Shown one piece after another: positions 1-15,875 of a DNA stretch of 21,549 nt (position 1 is the first letter of the stretch; each line of letters opens with the position of its first letter). The translations under genes and the position numbers were made by a program. The notes under the pieces are model-generated. The model made no database searches. It saw only the letters and a program-made list of their open reading frames with translations, and was not told the origin of the DNA. The DNA is from Deltaproteobacteria bacterium (lineage in GTDB: Bacteria > Desulfobacterota > DSM-4660 > Desulfatiglandales > HGW-15), in contig JAGUZM010000404.1 of assembly GCA_020060805.1 (NCBI GenBank), positions 1-21,549 on the forward strand. The letters run 5' to 3'.

Positions 1-166
1 ATGTGATGGCGACCTCGCTGACCCTGTTATCCCTCAGCAGAGAAAGGAATTGGCTGTAGGGAATGGTTTTGATCGCCAGAGCCGAGCCGAGATAATTTTG
101 AATCAGCAGAACCACCCAGATCCCCAGAAGGACATACCATATGGAAAACTTAGTATGCTTCTCCAC
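1..166 (-). CDS. ftsH: FtsH-like ATP-dependent zinc metalloprotease, N-terminal fragment (continues off the window)
   Basis: Manual translation from GTG at 166 gives MEKHTKFSIWYVLLGIWVVLLIQNYLGSALAIKTIPYSQFLSLLRDNRVSEVAIT..., a TM helix followed by the typical FtsH 'I.YS.FL..L....V..V.I' N-terminus. A strong SD (AGGAGGTGG) precedes the GTG. Not in the supplied ORF track. Confidence 0.8.
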   Translation of the reverse strand, partial: MEKHTKFSIWYVLLGIWVVLLIQNYLGSALAIKTIPYSQFLSLLRDNRVSEVAIT

Positions 167-202: not shown

Positions 203-1705
203 TCATTTATCCTTCACCTTGAATTTCAGCCAGTCGAGCATCTCCTGGATATTCTTGGCCATGTACCATCGGCCGTTGGCGAAAGCACCGTAATCAGCCC
301 CTGCCATGGCAGAGGAAAAACGGGTTGAGTTGGCGTAGAAAAGCCACTGCTCAACCCACCTCTTTTCAATCGCTTCGTTAAAGATGCTGTCATTCTGCGC
401 AAGCCCTTTGGCCGCTCCCTTCTCCCAGGCAGCAAGGACGATCTTCGTAGCGGTCAGGGTCATCTCATTGGTCTTTTGTATGGTGTTTTCGAGACGAGCG
501 AAATGCCCGTCCACCCAACCCTGGCTGTGGCAGGAAAGGCAGACCTTTTGCATCGCCTTTCGTCTACGCTCCTGTTCCTTCTGATCGATGAGGTAAGTCG
601 TCGCAGGTTCGCCCGTCAGCTCCGTGGGCAGGGGGAGACCTGCCTTGTTCCGGATGATCGTCGTATCCGGGGAAATCGGGTGGGGATGGGCGTAGATCAG
701 GCCGAAGATCCGCCAGGGCAGGCGGTCATTCATCTGATGGGTTCTTCCGGCGATGGTTTCTCCATCTTCAGAGACGAGCAAGCTCACATGGCACGTGGCG
801 CAGGTCGGCCCGGTGATGTCTTTTCCCACGGTCCAGGGAACGGCGTCATAGTTCCATGAACCGCCGAGGGAGGAATACATGTTGCCGTGCTTGCTCACTT
901 CGTAGACTTTGAAAGCGGGCACATCGGGGCCCTTATGGCACTGAGAGCAGGTGTAGGGTTTTCTGGCCATTTCGATAGAGAACCGATGCCTGGTGTGGCA
1001 TGCGCTGCAAGACCCCTTGCTCCCGTCCGGGTTGACCCTTCCTACGCCCTGATTGGGCCAGCCCGAGAGCACCGGGAAGGTCATCTCACCGTGATCGGTC
1101 TCTCTTGAAACGTTCCCCTTCACGCTGACCACGGTTCCGTGGCAGGACAGGCAGGCATCGGCGGAGGTCAGAGGGTCAGGGGCGCTGAGGGTCGTGCTCA
1201 TCCCTGAGAAGGATTGAATGCCTGTGGCCGACTTGACGAAATCCTTGTAGACCGGGTTGTTTTCCAGGTTGCCGTAGGCATGGGACATCAGGTTTTTGCC
1301 GTACTGACTCCTTTCAGCAGGATGGCAGGTGGCGCAATCCTCAGGTGTCACGACCGTGTGAACCTCAAGGCCGTTGTGGTCGAAGGCATCTTTGTGTTTT
1401 GAAGAATTCATGGTGTGACACTCCGCGCATCCCACCACGACATGGGCAAGGGAATCGGGCAGCGTGTCGTAGGAGACCCTTCTCTCCTTCTCAGGCAGGC
1501 CCTTGGCCGCACCGGGGGTGACTCTGGACATGCGGCTTTTTTTCCAGTCCGCCACGATGCCCGGGTGGAGCGACGCATGGCATTCGAGACAGAAAGCCGT
1601 GTCTTCGCTGATAGGTGGTTCAGCGAAGACTGCCTTTGGGAAAAGGAAAACCGAAACGACAGCAACAAAAAAAAGCTTAGTACAAGCCTTCGTAAATACC
1701 CTCAC
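203..1705 (-). CDS. Periplasmic octaheme-type multiheme cytochrome c (hydroxylamine oxidoreductase-like/OCC superfamily candidate)
   Basis: Eight CxxCH motifs (CLECH, CAECH, CATCH, CLSCH, CSACH, CSQCH, CATCH, CLSCH). GTG at 1705 gives a signal peptide MRVFTKACTKLFFVAVVSVFLFPKAVFA. The track start at 1924 reads through a repeat element and is unlikely to be real. Confidence 0.85.
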   Translation of the reverse strand: MRVFTKACTKLFFVAVVSVFLFPKAVFAEPPISEDTAFCLECHASLHPGIVADWKKSRMSRVTPGAAKGLPEKERRVSYDTLPDSLAHVVVGCAECHTMNSSKHKDAFDHNGLEVHTVVTPEDCATCHPAERSQYGKNLMSHAYGNLENNPVYKDFVKSATGIQSFSGMSTTLSAPDPLTSADACLSCHGTVVSVKGNVSRETDHGEMTFPVLSGWPNQGVGRVNPDGSKGSCSACHTRHRFSIEMARKPYTCSQCHKGPDVPAFKVYEVSKHGNMYSSLGGSWNYDAVPWTVGKDITGPTCATCHVSLLVSEDGETIAGRTHQMNDRLPWRIFGLIYAHPHPISPDTTIIRNKAGLPLPTELTGEPATTYLIDQKEQERRRKAMQKVCLSCHSQGWVDGHFARLENTIQKTNEMTLTATKIVLAAWEKGAAKGLAQNDSIFNEAIEKRWVEQWLFYANSTRFSSAMAGADYGAFANGRWYMAKNIQEMLDWLKFKVKDK

Positions 1706-1708
1706 GTA

Positions 1709-1881
1709 TTCACCACCGAGGCACAGAGGACACGGAGGGGGATATGTTTTTCGTCTATCGGGAGATACCGATAGACGAAAATAATCCTCGTAAGATCTTC
1801 TCGGAGCAGAATATTTTTGTTTGTCGGTATCTCCCGACAAACAAAAACTTTTCTCTGCGCCCTCTGCGTCTCCGTGGTGAA
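1709..1881. repeat. Nested palindromic MITE-like or REP-like element with two internal perfect hairpins
   Basis: Outer imperfect inverted arms TTCACCACCGAGGCACAGAGGACACGGAG (1709-1737) and the reverse complement of 1853-1881 (TTCACCACGGAGACGCAGAGGGCGCAGAG). Internal 14-bp perfect stems at 1748-1781 and 1814-1847. AAGATCTT palindrome at the centre (1792-1799). Confidence 0.8.
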
Positions 1882-1916
1882 CCAAAATTCGTGACGGTAA
1901 TTGTGAAGACCTGACC

Positions 1917-2621
1917 TTAGTCATCAGCTTCTCCTTGTTCGAGACTTCTCAGAGCCCCGATCGCCAGTTCCCCGATCGTATGCTTCTCAAGCCGCTCTCC
2001 CGAGAATATCAACAGCTCAGTATCATCCTGTGTCAAACCCTCGAGCGCTGAGCAGGCCTCACCAACCCGCAGGAGGCCCAAGATTTTGACCGCAAGACCT
2101 CTGTGGGTCGGGTTGGGAGAGTCCAGAAAGGGCCGGAGAAGAGGGAGCGAATTCTTGACAAGGCCGGGACGCACCTCTGCCACCCTTCCTATTCCCCATA
2201 AAACACCCGATTGCAGGACCTCGTTCTCGAGAAGGTTCCCGTCCTCCCTCAGGTACGATATTAGTATATGGGTATATTCCCTTGCAAGCCTGTCATGGGA
2301 GGCAAGGATTTCACCCATCGCCTCGGGAGATCCCCACCCGATGCCGCCCGACTCGTCGTTGAGGTTCCACATCAGCCTGCGCAGGATGACGCGAGCTGCT
2401 TCCATGTCCCCCTCGGCCAGGCTCGCAACCACCGCTCCCATGGCTTTCACAGCGCCCCATTTCAATCTCTCGTCCCCCTCCTGGATCAAGGCAAAAAGGG
2501 GATTAACCGCAACCCGCGGCGGAAACCGGCAGATTTCCTCGATCGCAACGGGCAGGTTCCGTGTTTTCAAGAGTTCCAGAACTCTCTTTTTCAATGCCCG
2601 GCCTTTTGTGGGATGATTCAT
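1917..2621 (-). CDS. HEAT-repeat (PBS-lyase-type) protein, resembling the DVU0298 family
   Basis: 234 aa of helical repeats with 'RFPPRVAVNPLFALIQEGDERLKWGAVKAMGAVVASLAEGDMEAARVILRRLMWNLNDESGGIGWGSPEAMGEI'. Family name is from recall. Confidence 0.7.
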   Translation of the reverse strand: MNHPTKGRALKKRVLELLKTRNLPVAIEEICRFPPRVAVNPLFALIQEGDERLKWGAVKAMGAVVASLAEGDMEAARVILRRLMWNLNDESGGIGWGSPEAMGEILASHDRLAREYTHILISYLREDGNLLENEVLQSGVLWGIGRVAEVRPGLVKNSLPLLRPFLDSPNPTHRGLAVKILGLLRVGEACSALEGLTQDDTELLIFSGERLEKHTIGELAIGALRSLEQGEADD

Positions 2622-7728: not shown

Positions 7729-7938
7729 TCAACCCTCGTACTTGAAGGATAGGTTGACCCTTGCCCGGTAGAGCTTGACCTTCCCTTTCTCAACAGTCAT
7801 ATCCAGTTTGGTCACTTCCGCGACTCTCAGATCCCTGAGGGTTCCTGAGGCGGTTTCCACCGCGGTTTTGGCAGCCTCCTCCCAGGATTTATCGCTGGTT
7901 CCCACGAGTTGAACGATGTTGTAGGTACTTGGTCCCAT
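7729..7938 (-). CDS. Dodecin family flavin-binding protein
   Basis: MGPSTYNIVQLVGTSDKSWEEAAKTAVETASGTLRDLRVAEVTKLDMTVEKGKVKLYRARVNLSFKYEG is a canonical dodecin. The ATG at 7938 has SD GAAAGGAGGGG, so the track's longer start (8016) is not favoured. Confidence 0.92.
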   Translation of the reverse strand: MGPSTYNIVQLVGTSDKSWEEAAKTAVETASGTLRDLRVAEVTKLDMTVEKGKVKLYRARVNLSFKYEG

Positions 7939-8077
7939 GTTTCCCCTCCTTTCAAAAATGTGCCTTTTTTCTTGAATTGCCCCAACCGCCGGGCCAGAGA
8001 ATACCCTCCCGGACACGATAAGTCAACAGTCCCTTAAGCCGGCTAAATGACGCGTTACCCCAAGTACACAGCCGAAC

Positions 8078-8608
8078 TCACATCGGGACGAAGCTGTTGG
8101 CCTGAAAATAATCCTCCTTGAGCAACTGAAGCTGGTTCTTGAAGGCTTTGTAATGGTCCTCTTCCCAGGCTGCCAGCTCATGGTAGAAAGCCTTCACATC
8201 CGGGGAGTCCGCTTTGTCGGCACAGGACCTGTAGAACTTCATGGCGTCCTGTTCCAGCTTCATGCCGATGGTGAGGGCGCTCACCTCGAAATGGCTGCTC
8301 TTGATTCGGGATTCGATCTCCTTGCTGAAAATCGGGCCGACGCCGTGCTTGCGGGAGCTTTTTTTCAATTTCTTTTTCAAATCATAGTCCCCGGTGTCAA
8401 GCACAGACCGGTACTGATGCTGCAGGTAATGGAGGTGCCCCATTTCTTCCTGGGCCATTTTCGCAAAGGTCGCCTTTCCCTTCGGGTCCTTGGTGCTTTT
8501 GGCTGCGCTTTTATAGAACTCATGGCCCGTCAACTCCGCTTCAATCGCTGTCTTCAGGCCATCCAGAATTTTCTTTTTGCTCCTTTCCATGGTCAGCTCC
8601 TTGTTCAT
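8078..8608 (-). CDS. Ferritin-like/rubrerythrin-type di-iron protein
   Basis: Repeated E...ExxH-like carboxylate motifs: 'AIEAELTGHEFYKSAA', 'MAQEEMGHLHYL', 'GMKLEQDAMKFYRSCA', 'AAWEEDHYKAFKNQ'. Confidence 0.8.
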   Translation of the reverse strand: MNKELTMERSKKKILDGLKTAIEAELTGHEFYKSAAKSTKDPKGKATFAKMAQEEMGHLHYLQHQYRSVLDTGDYDLKKKLKKSSRKHGVGPIFSKEIESRIKSSHFEVSALTIGMKLEQDAMKFYRSCADKADSPDVKAFYHELAAWEEDHYKAFKNQLQLLKEDYFQANSFVPM

Positions 8609-8759
8609 TCATCATCCCGTTTCGGGAGAGAGAAAACCTTTCTTACCCGGAAATGGGCTTTCGGCCCAGGGTTTTTTCGGGCAAGGGCATGACAGCGGAG
8701 GCTTCTCCAATCGCGCCCCTGCCCTTCACCGTCCTCCCCTCCGGCGATCGGAGTTATCC

Positions 8760-9092
8760 TTAAGAAAACTTCTCAGGCGGTCGCCGCTCGGGAACATATT
8801 GAATCGGGGTTTTTCCTTCATTCCACGCCTTCGAGACATAGAGATTGCAATAACAGCTCCCGAACTCCTTCACATCAGGCACCCGGTAGACGCAAGGGCA
8901 GATGATGTCCTGGTCTTTTAGACGGTCTCCTGACGAGAGCCTGCAAGGGCAACACATATACCCATAGCGTTTCCTGTTTTCGATCAACGAGGCCAGGAGG
9001 TCAAAAACCCTTTCCCTGTCTTTGTTGAAATAATAGCCCTTCGGTTCCTGAACCTTTTTCAGGTTCTCATACAGTTTCTCCACCTCGTTCAT
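8760..9092 (-). CDS. Ferredoxin:thioredoxin reductase catalytic subunit-like [4Fe-4S] protein
   Basis: CPC-x14-CPC-x12-CYC arrangement in 'YMCCPCRLSSGDRLKDQDIICPCVYRVPDVKEFGSCYCNLYVS'. Confidence 0.85.
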   Translation of the reverse strand: MNEVEKLYENLKKVQEPKGYYFNKDRERVFDLLASLIENRKRYGYMCCPCRLSSGDRLKDQDIICPCVYRVPDVKEFGSCYCNLYVSKAWNEGKTPIQYVPERRPPEKFS

Positions 9093-9340
9093 AGTCCGAG
9101 AGCCTCCTTGATCTCTTTCTCCTTGAAGCCCACGATGACCTTATCACCGATGATGATGGTGGGAAAAGAACACCGGGGGTTCAGTTTCCTCACGTCCTCC
9201 AGGATGGCGGTCCTCTCTTCGCCCTCGAGCATATCCACGTCCGTGAATTCGTACTTGACGGCGCATTCGTCCAGGAATTTCTTGGTCGCCTTGCAGTGAC
9301 TGCATGTGCTCAGCGTGTACATCTTGATGCTTTCTTTCAT
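9089..9340 (-). CDS. Glutaredoxin family protein
   Basis: MKESIKMYTLSTCSHCKATKKFLDECAVKYEFTDVDMLEGEERTAILEDVRKLNPRCSFPTIIIGDKVIVGFKEKEIKEALGL with CSHC active site and cis-Pro 'SFPT'. Stop overlaps the FTR start (ATGA). The track start at 9427 is extended. Confidence 0.9.
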   Translation of the reverse strand: MKESIKMYTLSTCSHCKATKKFLDECAVKYEFTDVDMLEGEERTAILEDVRKLNPRCSFPTIIIGDKVIVGFKEKEIKEALGL

Positions 9341-9359
9341 CAGCGTCGCTCCTTTCTCG

Positions 9360-10193
9360 TCAGGCTTCGCCTTCCATGAGGCGACCCAGGGATGCAAGAT
9401 GCCTCTTTTCTTCTTCCCCAAGGTCATGAAAGACGGCCTTGCTACGATGGTCTTGGCTTTTCCGTGAATAACGCAGGTAGAGATCGAGGGCCTGGGTTTC
9501 GAGCATCATGGCGATACCCAGGACGTTTTCCCTAGTATTCATCGCTTCCTTATTCTGCTCCATGAACTCCTCGGTCGTGAATCCCCCTTCCATGAGTTTC
9601 GAAACGATGCGGGTTTCGAACTGCCCCTGATCCGTTACGGTCCTATCGAGGGTCTGATACAGGTTGAAGAGCTTTTGGCGGTGATTCTCTTCGATGCCGG
9701 CCAACCGTTTCAGAAGGCTTTTTACCTCTGGCTGAGGGGTGGTTTCCGCGATCGCGGTATACCACTCAGACAACCCGGTCTCCATGCCGTATGCAAGAAC
9801 CACCACCTCCGGCGGCTTTTCATCTCCCTTCAGGTAGGCCATTCCCATTTCCGCTGGGCCGAAGGCTGTTCGGCCCTGCCAGGCGGTAATGCCCCCTTTG
9901 AGGTTGTACACTTCCTTGAAGCCCTCACCGGCCAGGAGTTGCGCAGCAGCACGGCTGCGCGCGCCGGTGGCTCAGTACGCAATCACGGGTTTCTGGGGAT
10001 CGAGTTCCCCATTACGGTTGAGGAGCTCCGGCAAGGGGATCAAAACGGCCCCCGGGATGTGCGACTTTTCGTATTCAGAAGGCTGGCGAACGTCAAGAAG
10101 GGAATAGGTTCCTTCTTTGTGTGTATTGATGTAGGTTTTCGCCTCTTCGGCGTTCATGGTGTTGACGGGTGTGAAAAATTTCAACCACTTCAC
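9360..10193 (-). CDS. Probable selenoprotein: rhodanese domain with Sec (TGA) at the catalytic position, fused to a ferritin-like domain
   Basis: GTG 10193 gives MKWLKFFTPVNTMNAEEAKTYINTHKEGTYSLLDVRQPSEYEKSHIPGAVLIPLPELLNRNGELDPQKPVIAY, then TGA (9974-9972), then in the same frame ATGARSRAAAQLLAGEGFKEVYNLKGGITAWQG and a ferritin-like C-terminus ('AYGMETGLSEWYTAI..', 'IEENHRQKLFNLY', 'LETQALDLYLRYS', 'GEEEKRHLASL'). The TGA replaces the Cys of the usual C-x-x-G-x-R loop. Confidence 0.8.
9926..9971 (-). promoter_or_regulatory. Candidate bacterial SECIS element immediately downstream of the in-frame TGA
   Basis: Minus strand after TGA: GC-CACCGGC-GC-GCGCAGC-CGTGCT-GCTGCGC-AACTCCTG-GCCGGTG. Perfect 7-bp outer stem (9969-9963/9932-9926) and perfect 7-bp inner stem (9960-9954/9947-9941). 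The 6-nt loop begins 19 nt after the TGA and has G as its second nucleotide. Confidence 0.65.
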
Positions 10194-10545: not shown

Positions 10546-10629
10546 CCTCCGTAACGTCCTTCGAGCGGTAAGGGGGCGCTGGGATCGCACCGGGGAAGCC
10601 CCGACAGAACCGATGATGCGGTGGGGAGG
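10546..10629 (+). promoter_or_regulatory. Possible structured 5' leader that could sequester the SD of the MoxR-like gene
   Basis: CCTCC (10546-10550) is complementary to the SD GGAGG (10625-10629). The interior is GC-rich with local hairpins (CCTT..AAGG, CGGGG-AAG-CCCCG). No known riboswitch class recognised. Confidence 0.25.
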
Positions 10630-10640
10630 TGAATCATCTC

Positions 10641-11522
10641 ATGGAAAAAGTGGTCATAGAGGGAGTGGAACTGCACCTGACGCAGCCGGATGACGTTCCC
10701 ATGGTTTGGGTCGGCCAGGATGAGCTTGTCACCCAGGTCCTGGCAGCATGGCTCGTCATCGGCGACGATGATTTGCCCCTCCATCCGAGGCTCGTTGGAA
10801 AACCGGGCGTCGGCAAAACCACCCTGGCCTACCATGCGGGCCGTAAGCTCGGGAAACCGGTGTACCTTTACCAGGCGACGATGGACACGCGGCCGGAGGA
10901 CCTCATCGTGACCCCGGTGATCTCGGAAGCGGGCAAGATCAAGTACATGGCAAGCCCCATCGTTTCAGCCATGATCAAAGGGGGTGTGGCGGTCATCGAC
11001 GAAGGAAACAGGATGAGCGAGAAAAGCTGGGCCTCCCTCGCGCCGCTGATGGACAGCAGGCGCTACGTGGAATCCGTCGTTGCAGGAATCAAGATCAAAG
11101 CCCATCCCGAGTTCAGGCTCTGCACAACCATGAACGATGACGCCAGCACCTTTGAGCTTCCGGATTACATCCATTCGAGGCTCCAGCCGCAGATCTTCAT
11201 CGACTTTCCGGAAAGGGATGAAGAACTCCTCATCCTCAGGGCCAATCTGCCCTTTGCCGAGGAGGGGGTCCTGCAGTACGTGGTGGATTTTCTGCAGGCT
11301 GCCCATGAAATGGATGAGCGCTATTCGGTCAGGGACGGGATCAACATCGCCCGGTACGCCTTGAAAAGGCTTGTGGAGAGCGGCGAACGCCTCACCTCCC
11401 AGGAGCGGACGGAGAGGGTCGTTCAGTACATGAAAGAGGCTGCCACGATGATCCTGGATCCCAACGCCGCCCGGTATTTCAAGGACACGGTGGACTCCGG
11501 CGATGACGAAGAACAGGATTGA
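10641..11522 (+). CDS. MoxR-like AAA+ ATPase (AAA_5 type)
   Basis: Walker A 'GKPGVGKTTL', Walker B 'GGVAVIDEGNRM', sensor region 'FRLCTTMNDD'. ATG 10641 with upstream GGGAGG; GTG 10629 is the alternative. Confidence 0.85.
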   Translation: MEKVVIEGVELHLTQPDDVPMVWVGQDELVTQVLAAWLVIGDDDLPLHPRLVGKPGVGKTTLAYHAGRKLGKPVYLYQATMDTRPEDLIVTPVISEAGKIKYMASPIVSAMIKGGVAVIDEGNRMSEKSWASLAPLMDSRRYVESVVAGIKIKAHPEFRLCTTMNDDASTFELPDYIHSRLQPQIFIDFPERDEELLILRANLPFAEEGVLQYVVDFLQAAHEMDERYSVRDGINIARYALKRLVESGERLTSQERTERVVQYMKEAATMILDPNAARYFKDTVDSGDDEEQD

Positions 11523-13332
11523 GTGGAAAAACATCCGCTTTGTGCCTGTCCTTCACGGGCGGATGGAATTGGCCCTGGAGGTGAGGAGACAGTTCCGGGA
11601 GTTCAAGCCCGACCAAGTGGCGGTGGAATACCCCCATACCCTGCAGGACCAGATCCTTCGAGGAGTCAAGAGACTCCCCCTTCTCTCCGTTGTCTATTAT
11701 CAGGAGAGCGACGGCGCCTTCATTTACCTCCTTCTGGAGCCGACAGATCCGCTGGTGGAGGCTGTCAGGCTCGCCCTGGAAAACAACGTTCCGGTTCACT
11801 TCGTAGACCGGGACACGGAAGGCTATCCCCTTGATCGGTCCCCTATGCCTGACCCGTATGCGATCACCCGCATCGGTCATTACCTCTTCTGCCAGGCTTA
11901 CCTCAAGACCCGGGAGGGCGAGATGCCGTTCCTGGAAGACTCCCTCCGGGAGAAGACGATGGCCTACCATCTCCAGCGGCTGAACAGAGCAGGGGGGAAG
12001 ACCCTTTTCGTGGGCGGCCTGTACCACCTCCCCGGGATTCTTTCCAACATCGAAGGGCCCCAGGCGGAGGTAATCGGCAGGAAGCACAGGGAAGGGGCTG
12101 GACTGGCCCATCTACATCAGGACTCCAGCGCGGAAGTGTTGACAGAAATGCCCTTTCTGGTGGCAAGGTATGAGCGCTTCAGGGGTGCAGGGGGCGCGGA
12201 AGACCCTGACAGGCTCAAGGTTCATAACGAACTCATCGGCCTTGCCCGCAGGAGCCACTGGAAGAACAACAAAGAGGAATTATCCCGCCTTCAGGTCAGG
12301 ATCATGCACAAGTTTGCCAGGAACTATGCCCTTGTCACGGGCGGGCTGGTGCCCAGTTTCTACCAGCTCCTCGTGGCTGCCCGGGGAGCTGCGGATGACA
12401 ATTTTGCGTATGAACTTTGGGAAAAGGGGAGCGAATACCCGTGGCAGGCAGAGCAGCCCGGGCTGCCCATCATGCGCCTCAGCGGTGAGGATCTTTTCCT
12501 CGACCAGAAAAGGATACGATTCCACCGGAGGCTGAAGGCCTTCCGCAGGCGCCTGGTTCCGGTTCCCGTGAAGAAGAGGATAAGGGAGAAGACCCCGGGG
12601 GAATGGAAGAAAAGCTTCGACCACCTCTTCATCTGCTCTTATCCGCCCGAGGACGTGGTCGTGGAGGGTTACGGCCAATACCTCCAGAAAAAGGCCCTGG
12701 AGATCAAGTCTGAGGAGAACAGCCGGAGCGTTCCTTTTGTCAGTTCCATGATGGATGGGATCGATATCCGGGAGACCGTCAGGAACTGGGCCGAAGCGAA
12801 GATCTACGTGAAGGAGGGGAGGCCTATCCGGGGGAAGGTGGGATCCGTGGTCATGATTTTTGACCCTGACATGGCGGGAAAGGACGGGAAGGAAAATTTT
12901 CCCTGGAAGGTCACCTGGCTCGGTGAGCACGAACAGGAATCAGACATGGCTTTTTACAGCACCCCGGCCGGCGGCGTCATGGACGGGCCGGGTATTTCCC
13001 GGTGCCAGTACGGAGGCTTCATGCTCACCTATCCTCCGCTGAGGGTTTTGGATATATGGCAGGATCCCTTTTTCAACGTGGCGAGGAATAAACCGGAAAG
13101 GCTTCTCATGGCCGCCATAGACTACAGCGCGGAAAAACATGTGGTCTACGTCGCAGCCGACCCTCCCTCGGGATGGTGCCAGACCATGGCCGCGAAGCTG
13201 GGAAAGAAGATCATCTACATGCCCATCGGCGTTTTTTCTCCCGTGGCTCTGAAAAAGATCCGCCAGTTCCACGTCCTTGCCGGCCACCACGTCCGCAGGT
13301 ACGCCAAGCAGTACATCAAAACCGCCTCATGA
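11503..13332 (+). CDS. TraB/PrgY/GumN-like domain protein with large uncharacterised C-terminal region
   Basis: 609 aa. N-terminus 'IRFVPVLHGRMELALEVRRQFREFKPDQVAVEYPHTLQD....VPVHFVDRD....LFVGGLYHLPGI' resembles the TraB/GumN/ChaN-like fold. Overlaps the ATPase CDS by 20 bp. Confidence 0.55.
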   Translation: MTKNRIEWKNIRFVPVLHGRMELALEVRRQFREFKPDQVAVEYPHTLQDQILRGVKRLPLLSVVYYQESDGAFIYLLLEPTDPLVEAVRLALENNVPVHFVDRDTEGYPLDRSPMPDPYAITRIGHYLFCQAYLKTREGEMPFLEDSLREKTMAYHLQRLNRAGGKTLFVGGLYHLPGILSNIEGPQAEVIGRKHREGAGLAHLHQDSSAEVLTEMPFLVARYERFRGAGGAEDPDRLKVHNELIGLARRSHWKNNKEELSRLQVRIMHKFARNYALVTGGLVPSFYQLLVAARGAADDNFAYELWEKGSEYPWQAEQPGLPIMRLSGEDLFLDQKRIRFHRRLKAFRRRLVPVPVKKRIREKTPGEWKKSFDHLFICSYPPEDVVVEGYGQYLQKKALEIKSEENSRSVPFVSSMMDGIDIRETVRNWAEAKIYVKEGRPIRGKVGSVVMIFDPDMAGKDGKENFPWKVTWLGEHEQESDMAFYSTPAGGVMDGPGISRCQYGGFMLTYPPLRVLDIWQDPFFNVARNKPERLLMAAIDYSAEKHVVYVAADPPSGWCQTMAAKLGKKIIYMPIGVFSPVALKKIRQFHVLAGHHVRRYAKQYIKTAS

Positions 13333-13976: not shown

Positions 13977-15875
13977 CTAGACCAACTTAGCCTCCCTCAA
14001 CTCTACCAATATCCGGCTGCGACCATATTTGATTGCGCTGGCGAGGCCTTCATCGATTCGGCGTATAAGGTCTTCACTGCCTCCACCGGCGATATTAATG
14101 CTTCCAACGTCGAAATTCAAAATCATCCCGGCTGCCCCGCGCCCCATAGCCGCACCGCCGCTCACACCCTTCAGAACTTCGAACTGGGCTTCAAGAAGTT
14201 GCTTGCTTAGACCGTAGGCCTCTTTTTCTCCAGCGCCCGCATACATCCTGTAAGTCGTCACGTCGGTGAGAGGCCCGAAATCCCTGATCGCCCTGATCGT
14301 CGCCTGCATCGATGCTGTGAGGCTCGCTACTCCGGTAAGGTCGAGGGCATCCTGTATGACGCCACCTACACCCCGAAGGTCGTCCATCATTTCCTGTATC
14401 CCCACGGCCCAGGGCTTTGCAGGAGATTTCTTAATTTGAGGCTCGAACACGAAAGGATTCCGGCCCTCCTCCGCCGCCATGTAGTCAAAAAATTGGGCTG
14501 TACTCTGTGTCGCCTGAGCGATGCTCTCGCTTGCGTTTTGAGCAGCCTCCTGGATCGAATTGATAGTATCGACCACCTTCTCAGCGGCTGCCGAATAAGA
14601 TCCAGGCTGTGAAATAGGCATTCTCACAAAAGGACCTCCGGTCTCCGATGTGCTTTCTATCCCAGAAAGAAGCCTCTTCAGTTCAGGGAAATTGGAAAAC
14701 GCATACTCGCTCAAGCTCAGCTTTCCTGCCGCTACCGCCTGTGCTCCCTTGACCGAATTCTGTACTGCCTCGATGAGATGAAGTCCTGCTCCAAAAACAG
14801 CAAGCCCTTTTTTGCCGAATACGATTGCTGCTACAACTCCTCCCTCCTGAATCCACCCAGGAAGCGATTGAAACGTTTTATAAAGCTCTTCGCCTTTCGT
14901 TATTATTTTCGGCAGATACCTATCCGCGATGTCCGCCAATGAACCCACCGTCCTCACCAATCCCTTCGCCAAATCCAAGATCTCGTCAGCAGTCTTTTTT
15001 GCCCACTCTTGAAGTTTCCCTTCCGAATGAAGTTTATCCACCCGATCCACAACGCCTGCGAGGAAGGTTTCTAGTGACTTCATGACACCGGATTTCATCA
15101 CGAGGCGCTCAAACTCAGTCCAGTAGCTTTTGAGGCTCTCGGTCATTCCCGACCACGTCTTTTGTATCTTCTCTGACTGTCCACCGTAACGCTCCTGCAG
15201 ACCTTCGAATATTGCCTGCACTGCCGCCTTTGCGTTCAGGCTCGACGTCTCCACCTCGCCGAATTTCTTTTTTAGAATGTCGAACACCGGGACACCACGC
15301 TCTGCGAGCTGCATCAGCTCTTCTGCGCTCACCTTTCCTTTCGTGGCAATTTGCGCGAGAGCCCTGGCGATGCCCTGTAAAGTCTCTTCCGTGCCGCCCA
15401 ATGCGCTCATCGTATCGACAAGAATCGTCATCTGCTTAGTGGTTGGATCAAGCCCCATCGCCTTCATCATGATGAAGGTCTCAACCGCCTTCTGGGTATT
15501 CACAGGCATTTTGAGAGCCCACTCATTTAGCATCCTGAAGGTTTCTTCACCTTTCCCTTTTGTAAGAGTGTCAAGGCTGAGCGTCATCTTGTCGAACGAA
15601 GCAGCCGTGTTTACAAAACCAGAGGCAATCCGTTCTAGACGCCATCCCACAAAGGCCGTGGCCGCTATAGTTTTAAGGTTCACAAGCGACTTCCTGACTT
15701 CGCCGATCCTGCCCTTCACACCATCAAAGAGATTCTGGACCCGTTGCAGCCCAGGAGCGGCGCTTGTCCCGACCCCGGAAAGGTTCTTCGATGCGCCGTC
15801 GGTAAACTTCTTGATGTCAGCAAGGGCCTTGTCCACAGCGGCTTTCACGATGATCTCGACCGTATTCTCAGGCAT
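13977..15875 (-). CDS. Phage tail tape measure protein
   Basis: 632 aa. 'LVDTMSALGGTEETLQGIARALAQIATKGKVSAEELMQLAERGVPVFDILKKKFG' is the characteristic tape-measure N-terminal domain. Helical/hydrophobic body. Confidence 0.88.
   Translation of the reverse strand: MPENTVEIIVKAAVDKALADIKKFTDGASKNLSGVGTSAAPGLQRVQNLFDGVKGRIGEVRKSLVNLKTIAATAFVGWRLERIASGFVNTAASFDKMTLSLDTLTKGKGEETFRMLNEWALKMPVNTQKAVETFIMMKAMGLDPTTKQMTILVDTMSALGGTEETLQGIARALAQIATKGKVSAEELMQLAERGVPVFDILKKKFGEVETSSLNAKAAVQAIFEGLQERYGGQSEKIQKTWSGMTESLKSYWTEFERLVMKSGVMKSLETFLAGVVDRVDKLHSEGKLQEWAKKTADEILDLAKGLVRTVGSLADIADRYLPKIITKGEELYKTFQSLPGWIQEGGVVAAIVFGKKGLAVFGAGLHLIEAVQNSVKGAQAVAAGKLSLSEYAFSNFPELKRLLSGIESTSETGGPFVRMPISQPGSYSAAAEKVVDTINSIQEAAQNASESIAQATQSTAQFFDYMAAEEGRNPFVFEPQIKKSPAKPWAVGIQEMMDDLRGVGGVIQDALDLTGVASLTASMQATIRAIRDFGPLTDVTTYRMYAGAGEKEAYGLSKQLLEAQFEVLKGVSGGAAMGRGAAGMILNFDVGSINIAGGGSEDLIRRIDEGLASAIKYGRSRILVELREAKLV

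Follow-up and report, generated by a model that had tools for sequence, protein, structure and literature searches.

The selenocysteine insertion sequence (SECIS) of Escherichia coli fdhF has a minimal form, a 17-nucleotide (nt) upper stem-loop about 11 nt after the UGA codon, in which SelB contacts G23, U24 and a bulged U17. The bacterial SECIS model of bSECISearch (Zhang & Gladyshev 2005, via PMC13188914) has an apical loop of 3-9 nt on an upper stem of 4-16 base pairs (bp), a UGA-to-loop distance of 16-37 nt, a minimum free energy (MFE) of -7.5 kcal/mol or lower and a G at the first or second loop position, usually as part of N1-G-[G/U]-N-N2. The family of rhodanese-like selenoproteins was first reported in the bSECISearch and Sargasso Sea analyses (PMC1088965). 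It has five forms, of which forms 2 and 4, named 'rhodanese-related sulfurtransferase', carry a UxxG motif (for example MBM9537886.1 and MCY3690685.1; PMC13188914). Eight rhodanese-like selenoprotein genes were counted in the deltaproteobacterial symbionts of Olavius, where they are among the most abundant selenoproteins (PMC1976440), and the Desulfobacterota have the largest bacterial selenoproteomes. Here we analyse a gene that fuses a rhodanese domain to a rubrerythrin/ferritin-like domain and contains one in-frame UGA. It lies on the minus strand of contig JAGUZM010000404.1 (Deltaproteobacteria bacterium, Desulfobacterota, assembly GCA_020060805.1), the 21,549 nt of which are called the window. 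Judged from the sequence and its relatives, the UGA at 9974-9972 is very probably a selenocysteine (Sec) codon replacing the catalytic cysteine (Cys), and the upper stem-loop at 9960-9941 its bacterial SECIS.

The gene has 277 codons including the UGA, and runs from a GTG start to a terminal TGA at 9362-9360 (Table 1). Its translation matches the rhodanese family PF00581 at residues 23-106 (E = 4.1e-24) and, in the C-terminal part, the rubrerythrin/ferritin-like family PF02915 (E = 3e-11). About 1900 database proteins are homologous to the read-through protein at E <= 1e-10, and the best of them are 265-319 residues long, 50-62% identical and contain both domains. The NCBI and JGI gene calls cut the gene into a rhodanese of 73 residues and a 'rubrerythrin' of 183 (or 162) residues. 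In the protein alignment the UGA, codon 74, falls on the catalytic C74 that is invariant in 19 Cys-type homologues, and the motif at the site is Y-U-A-T-G-A-R-S-R here and Y-C-A-x-G-G-R-S-R in the homologues. Among the 120 top protein matches, the residue opposite the UGA is C in 115 and W in three. The three homologues with tryptophan (Trp) at the catalytic position (P0018, P0100 and P0105, Y-W-A-V-G-G-R-S) are most likely hidden Sec-type genes in which the TGA was translated under a TGA = Trp table. After the UGA the frame stays open for 203 codons, and the diiron ligand positions E138, E168, H171, E232, E262 and H265 are invariant or nearly so in the alignment of 19 homologues. A genetic code in which TGA is a sense codon was rejected, since 10 of the 18 open reading frames (ORFs) of the window, the fusion gene included, terminate in TGA. 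A scan of TGA-joined ORF pairs gave no convincing candidate for a second selenoprotein gene in the window.

The protein shares with the UxxG rhodanese selenoproteins the PF00581 domain, a predicted Sec at the catalytic Cys in U-x-x-G (here U-A-T-G), a deltaproteobacterial distribution and the existence of Cys-containing homologues. It differs from them in the C-terminal rubrerythrin diiron domain, a comparison made with the descriptions of the catalogued forms. A literature search combining rhodanese, rubrerythrin and selenocysteine returned nothing relevant, and the fusion is not mentioned in the rhodanese-selenoprotein literature that was found. No NCBIfam model reached its cut-off with the fusion protein; the scores of the LYCAU and TsoB rhodanese selenoprotein models were far below theirs.

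The same TGA is present in many relatives, which were searched for with a DNA pattern (TGA-GCN-NNN-GGN-NNN-MGN-WSN-MGN, 45 N, AAY-N6-GGN-GGN-N6-GCN-TGG) that leaves free every third codon position and codons 82-96 entirely. The pattern had a single match in the window and none in shuffled sequence. Loci with TGA at this codon were found in at least 120 genomes of a one-genome-per-species collection and in at least 120 metagenome contigs. The genomes among the matches listed are almost all Desulfobacterota, and cultured isolates with the TGA include Desulfosarcina alkanivorans PL12, Desulfospira joergensenii DSM 10085, Desulforhopalus singaporensis DSM 12130 and Desulfopila sp. IMCC35006. Of 241 listed loci, 210 remain in frame for 200-219 codons beyond the TGA and so have the fusion architecture of the window gene. 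Protein identity to the window gene is 60-64% for its best Sec-type relatives and equally for its best Cys-type ones.

The minus strand around the codon reads GUG AUU GCG UAC UGA GCC ACC GGC GCG CGC AGC CGU GCU GCU GCG CAA CUC CUG GCC GGU GAG (nucleotides are numbered +n from the U of UGA). A preliminary description of this DNA had proposed two stacked stems at 9974-9926, and direct reading agrees with it to the letter: both stems are perfect 7-bp Watson-Crick helices, and the 6-nt apical loop starts at the 19th nt after UGA (18 nt between, +4..+21) with G as its second base, followed by U. RNAfold, which had been proposed as a check, recovered the double helix over 57 nt at -28.3 kcal/mol with the apical part slightly displaced (pairing of GCAGC with GCUGC around a CGU triloop and a bulged U on the 3' arm, giving a stem of 5+4 bp). 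The local fold of nt +13..+37 was -15.1 kcal/mol. As in the bacterial SECIS model, the hairpin lies inside the ORF right after a UGA aligned with the Cys of homologues, and its 6-nt loop, 7-bp upper stem, G and U at loop positions 2 and 3, spacing of 18 nt and both energies fall within that model. Similar to E. coli fdhF, the upper helix begins 11 nt after UGA (nt +15 in the window) and the apical loop contains G23 and U24. The sequence is unrelated to that of fdhF and has no Rfam match, and the loop is CGUGCU and not of the GGUC type.

Each of the 225 unique Sec-type sequences has a hairpin at nt +16..+34 that belongs to one of two registers, R1 and R2 (Table 1), without exception. The window hairpin is a perfect R1 with an additional G15-C34 pair. 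In the 30 sequences of the R2 class the helix is re-formed 1-2 nt further on although the same peptide is encoded, and the UGA-to-loop distance is 20-21 nt as compared to 18 nt in the window and in R1. The preliminary description had asked for compensatory changes in Sec-type homologues, and these are found at pairs 16-33 and 18-31. Among 226 unique Sec-type sequences, 135 have C-G at pair 16-33 and 26 have A-U, with A16 always facing U33; at pair 18-31, 177 have C-G and eight have A-U. Pair counting in 150 Sec-type sequences showed 82% of the cells of the upper helix paired, with changes on both sides at these two pairs, and the covariation of the upper helix was above that of all 500 column shuffles and all slid controls. 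On a rough tree (unweighted pair group method with arithmetic mean), Fitch parsimony counted about seven switches between R1 and R2 and about 18 between Sec and Cys; the hairpin signal is therefore not a single inherited event.

The loop is constrained as well. Position 23 is G in 195 of 195 R1 sequences, and position 24, a four-fold degenerate site in Arg81, is either U (106) or G (89), with no C or A. In R2, G25 and U26 take the loop places equivalent to G23 and U24, and R2 with C24...G28 fits the N1/N2 base-pair form of the model literally. All four features of the published model (PMC13188914) are found in the window and in both registers, and there is no difference in geometry; two alternative registers for one peptide were not found described. 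With respect to fdhF, R1 lacks a bulged U in its 5' arm, and the upper stem-loop, to which the minimal fdhF element corresponds, is the only part conserved here.

The footprint of this hairpin on codon choice was profiled over 80 conserved codons in 195 unique Sec-type genes, against gene-wide usage. The median bias was 0.05 bits, and only codons 79, 80, 81, 83 and 84, which together span nt +16..+33, exceeded 0.35 bits (Table 1). When the same peptides were recoded with codons drawn from the genes' own usage, the helix was perfect in 0.5% of the recodings as compared to 70% of the genes, a 140-fold excess, and near-perfect in 9% as compared to 30%; the local MFE was -11.1 kcal/mol in the genes and -6.2 +/- 2.8 kcal/mol in the recodings. 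The window was treated in the same manner, its peptide being kept and synonymous codons drawn from the usage of the window itself in 5000 trials. Its MFE of -29.7 kcal/mol was reached by 2.2% of the recodings (-21.4 +/- 3.8 kcal/mol), and all seven upper pairs were formed in 0.1% of them. In every Sec-type orthologue a hairpin with a G[G/U] loop is kept at this place by selection acting at synonymous sites, and in the Cys-type genes it is degraded.

Cys-type DNA was obtained for 11 distinct orthologues by exact-protein look-up. A TGY pattern gave no further matches in viral contigs, nor did tblastn against plasmids. None of the 11 has a perfect helix in either register, versus 137 of 195 Sec-type genes (Fisher p = 3e-6), and three are one pair short, versus 58 of 195 (p = 2e-12 for perfect and near-perfect helices together). 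Ala83 is GCU in two of the first 10 Cys-type copies and in 164 of the 195 Sec-type genes (p = 3e-5). The loss of the stem in Cys-encoding homologues, which had been named as a further check, is therefore seen for the perfect helix and is incomplete otherwise, given the three near-perfect copies and two cases, L265 and the pair L194/L264, that are described below. Neither this check nor that of covariation, the two by which the SECIS reading could have been refuted according to the preliminary description, refuted it. The first 10 Cys-type copies have a mean local fold of about -9.3 kcal/mol as compared to -6.2 kcal/mol for recoded peptides, and Cys-type copies retain CGC-AGC at codons 79-80. 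This residual folding may go back to Sec ancestry, represent a latent SECIS or just reflect GC content. The two classes are told apart by register and loop motif, not by stability as such.

The lower stem behaves differently from the upper one, which is conserved with compensation in Sec-type genes and relaxed in Cys-type genes. Its pairs occur in the family as often as expected under independence (for example 39 observed and 37.4 expected, or 129 and 131.8), with 56% of the cells paired; recoding of the flanks alone, with codons 79-84 kept, gave a mean z of +0.15, and codons 75, 77, 87 and 89 have a bias of just 0.01-0.16 bits. The proposed SECIS geometry consequently holds for the upper stem-loop and finds no support in the family for the lower stem. 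These three results suggest that the lower 7-bp stem is probably a lineage-specific extension or due to chance, and it is not needed for the SECIS explanation. One could still take the whole two-stem structure of 14 bp as the functional SECIS of this lineage, with the lower stem required, as both stems are perfect in the window and all seven lower pairs arise in only 1.3% of the window-peptide recodings. Some enclosing lower pairs are also present in the MFE structures of most Sec-type relatives; their registers vary, however, and their number does not exceed that in recoded flanks. We consider this version unlikely in view of the pairing, flank and codon values above and of the place that nt +6..+12 should have in the ribosome.

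With UGA in the A site, nt +4 to about +14 lie inside the ribosomal mRNA channel. The lower stem (+6..+12) would therefore be melted while UGA is decoded and only the upper hairpin (+15..+34) could be folded, placed 11 nt past UGA at the channel entrance. The start of conservation at the upper hairpin fits the expectation that only that part is folded at decoding. The loop (G23, U24) and the helix would bind the C-terminal domain of a SelB carrying GTP and Sec-tRNA(Sec), and SelB would then deliver Sec at the UGA in competition with release factor 2. We infer the binding of SelB, the insertion of Sec and the presence of selA, selB, selC and selD in the genome.

Several results weigh against a Sec codon with its SECIS. 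In the 21.5-kb window ARAGORN detected no tRNA or tRNA-Sec, and none of selA, selB or selD is among the annotated ORFs. The TGA recurs in a second NCBI assembly (L001, gene at 300-1133), which matches at 100% identity over some 1 kb and is thus no independent confirmation. Rfam gave seven weak matches at E <= 10 over the whole window, none of them a SECIS or another credible RNA family. The lower stem is without comparative support, and RNAalifold returned no pairs on 150 mixed Sec-type sequences, a blank that is due to the superposition of two registers, since runs on each register class recovered each hairpin. The peptide GGRSRAAAQ by itself forces much of the complementarity. The preliminary description had warned that the region is GC-rich and coding, and rightly so: the 57-nt window sequence had a z of only -0.88 against dinucleotide shuffles, 35 of 200 of which fold as well, and z was -0.76 for 141 nt. 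Any GC-rich 57-mer folds well, which makes this value unremarkable and uninformative for GC-rich coding DNA, and the shuffles were therefore replaced by the synonymous recoding null. The Cys-type sample is small (11) and was drawn from the best matches to the window protein; most of its members fold locally at -8 to -9 kcal/mol (range -3.9 to -15.9). The most stable, L265, has a 9-bp hairpin in another register with the loop CGC at -15.9 kcal/mol. The closest Sec/Cys pair, L194 and L264 (85% protein identity), folds identically and differs, apart from the TGA/TGC codon, by one base within nt +1..+36; either Sec and Cys were exchanged here very recently or L194 has a plain nonsense mutation.

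Those points, and the two ORFs of the public annotation, could be read together as a true stop, that is, a nonsense mutation or a split gene whose hairpin is a by-product of G-A-R-S-R-A-A-A-Q in GC-rich DNA; the low shuffle z, the moderate folding of Cys-type copies (about -9 kcal/mol, one at -15.9) and the Sec machinery not seen in the window all agree with it. We nevertheless hold a true stop to be very improbable. In more than 240 loci, spread over many genera, the TGA coincides exactly with the catalytic Cys codon, and the frame after it and the diiron ligands are preserved; the synonymous-site bias is limited to the hairpin codons; perfect helices are 140 times as frequent as in recoded peptides; and both compensatory changes and two alternative registers are seen. 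The conserved hairpin might instead have another role, such as ribosome slowing or near-cognate read-through with Trp or Cys without SelB. In other systems, read-through of a stop codon can be promoted by structures downstream of it, and the inserted amino acid is here read from the sequence only. Yet Trp at this site, the catalytic Cys, would inactivate the enzyme, and a mere roadblock would not constrain loop bases, whereas the strict G followed by G or U at a four-fold degenerate loop site (195 of 195) and the spacing of 18-21 nt fit the SelB-type SECIS model. The hairpin is moreover limited to a phylum with large selenoproteomes, and such a role without SelB has in our view hardly any chance of being correct.

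Table 1. Features of the fusion gene, its hairpin, the two family registers and the five biased codons. Window positions are given on the contig; nt numbers count from the U of UGA.
Feature	Position	Strand	Sequence or frequency	Basis or remark
Rhodanese (N-terminal) and rubrerythrin/ferritin-like (C-terminal) fusion gene	10193..9360	minus		Translation, Pfam, homologues
In-frame UGA, proposed Sec codon (codon 74)	9974-9972	minus	UGA	Aligns with rhodanese catalytic-loop Cys
Dinucleotide after UGA	9971-9970	minus	GC	Direct reading
Lower stem, 5' arm (nt +6..+12)	9969-9963	minus	CACCGGC	Direct reading; not conserved in family
Between lower and upper 5' arms	9962-9961	minus	GC	Direct reading
Upper stem, 5' arm	9960-9954	minus	GCGCAGC	Direct reading
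Apical loop	9953-9948	minus	CGUGCU (C22-G23-U24-G25-C26-U27)	Direct reading
Upper stem, 3' arm	9947-9941	minus	GCUGCGC	Direct reading
Between upper and lower 3' arms	9940-9933	minus	AACUCCUG	Direct reading
Lower stem, 3' arm (nt +43..+49)	9932-9926	minus	GCCGGUG	Direct reading; not conserved in family
Upper stem-loop, proposed SelB-binding SECIS core	9960-9941	minus		Family-conserved part nt +16..+33 = 9959-9942
Register R1	nt 16-21 paired with 28-33		CGCAGC/GCUGCG, loop C22 G23 K24 G25 Y26 N27	129 perfect, 66 with 5/6 pairs
Register R2	nt 18-22(23) paired with (29)30-34		GAGCC/GGCUC, loop N24 G25 U26 K27 G28	25 perfect, 5 with 4/5 pairs
Arg79			CGC 78%, gene-wide 21%	1.11 bits
Ser80			AGC 97%, gene-wide 23%	1.96 bits
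Arg81			CGU 46%, gene-wide 15%	0.75 bits
Ala83			GCU 84%, gene-wide 17%	1.79 bits
Ala84			GCG 60%, gene-wide 20%	0.70 bits

The fusion gene is followed on the same strand (7729-9340, minus) by genes for a CxxC glutaredoxin, a homologue of the ferredoxin-thioredoxin-reductase catalytic subunit, a rubrerythrin/DUF2383 protein and a dodecin. This gene order is common to the window and several Cys-type loci (L242-L255), the dodecin being noted in the window, and the conserved neighbourhood looks like a thiol/persulfide redox operon. For the glutaredoxin, the longest ORF (9089-9427, minus, 112 residues, ATG at 9427) runs into the end of the selenoprotein gene; homologues and the L001 gene call point to the ATG at 9340, preceded by AAAGGAG, as its real start, which gives 83 residues. 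Upstream and divergent (10629-13332, plus) are a MoxR-like AAA ATPase and a 609-residue protein without Pfam match, and this side of the neighbourhood, with a protein of about 610 residues, is likewise shared with several Cys-type loci. Further away, a 632-residue ORF at 13977-15875 (minus) matches the phage tape measure family PF20155 (E = 2e-17) and, lying a few kb from the redox operon, may be what is left of a prophage or tailocin. A multihaem cytochrome c of 573 residues at 203-1924 (minus; PF13447 and related families) is consistent with a metal- or sulfur-respiring host of the Desulfobacterota type. The 90% cluster to which the neighbouring ferredoxin-thioredoxin-reductase-like protein belongs contains a Desulfatiglandales record.

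The gene of the window, as far as can be told from its sequence, joins the already catalogued Sec-rhodaneses of the UxxG form, with an ordinary bacterial SECIS, and our knowledge of Sec decoding itself is unchanged by it. What is modestly new is the fusion itself, the use of two alternative registers and a very sharp footprint at synonymous sites. For annotation, it means that in this gene, and probably in several hundred Sec-type orthologues from public Desulfobacterota genomes and metagenomes, current calls give two pieces or put Trp at the Sec position, where there should be one selenoprotein, of 277 residues in the window, with Sec as the predicted nucleophile. With such a protein, a conserved thiol-redox operon would begin with a Sec-containing persulfide or selenide carrier domain that is fused to a diiron domain. 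With five constrained codons, two registers and a strict G[G/U], the family also offers an unusually clean comparative SECIS signature and a possible benchmark for SECIS predictors. We propose, as a tentative idea that we regard as possible but rather doubtful, that the stretch encoding the rhodanese catalytic loop (R-S-R-x-A-A) is a latent SECIS, in which a few synonymous choices suffice to give, in either register, a SelB-type hairpin suitably spaced from the catalytic codon. If true, this would explain the many Cys/Sec switches in the family as well as the CGC-AGC kept in Cys-type copies and their folding about 3 kcal/mol better than recoded peptides. The family would then be a natural system in which to follow the rise or decay of a SECIS inside a constrained active-site coding segment.

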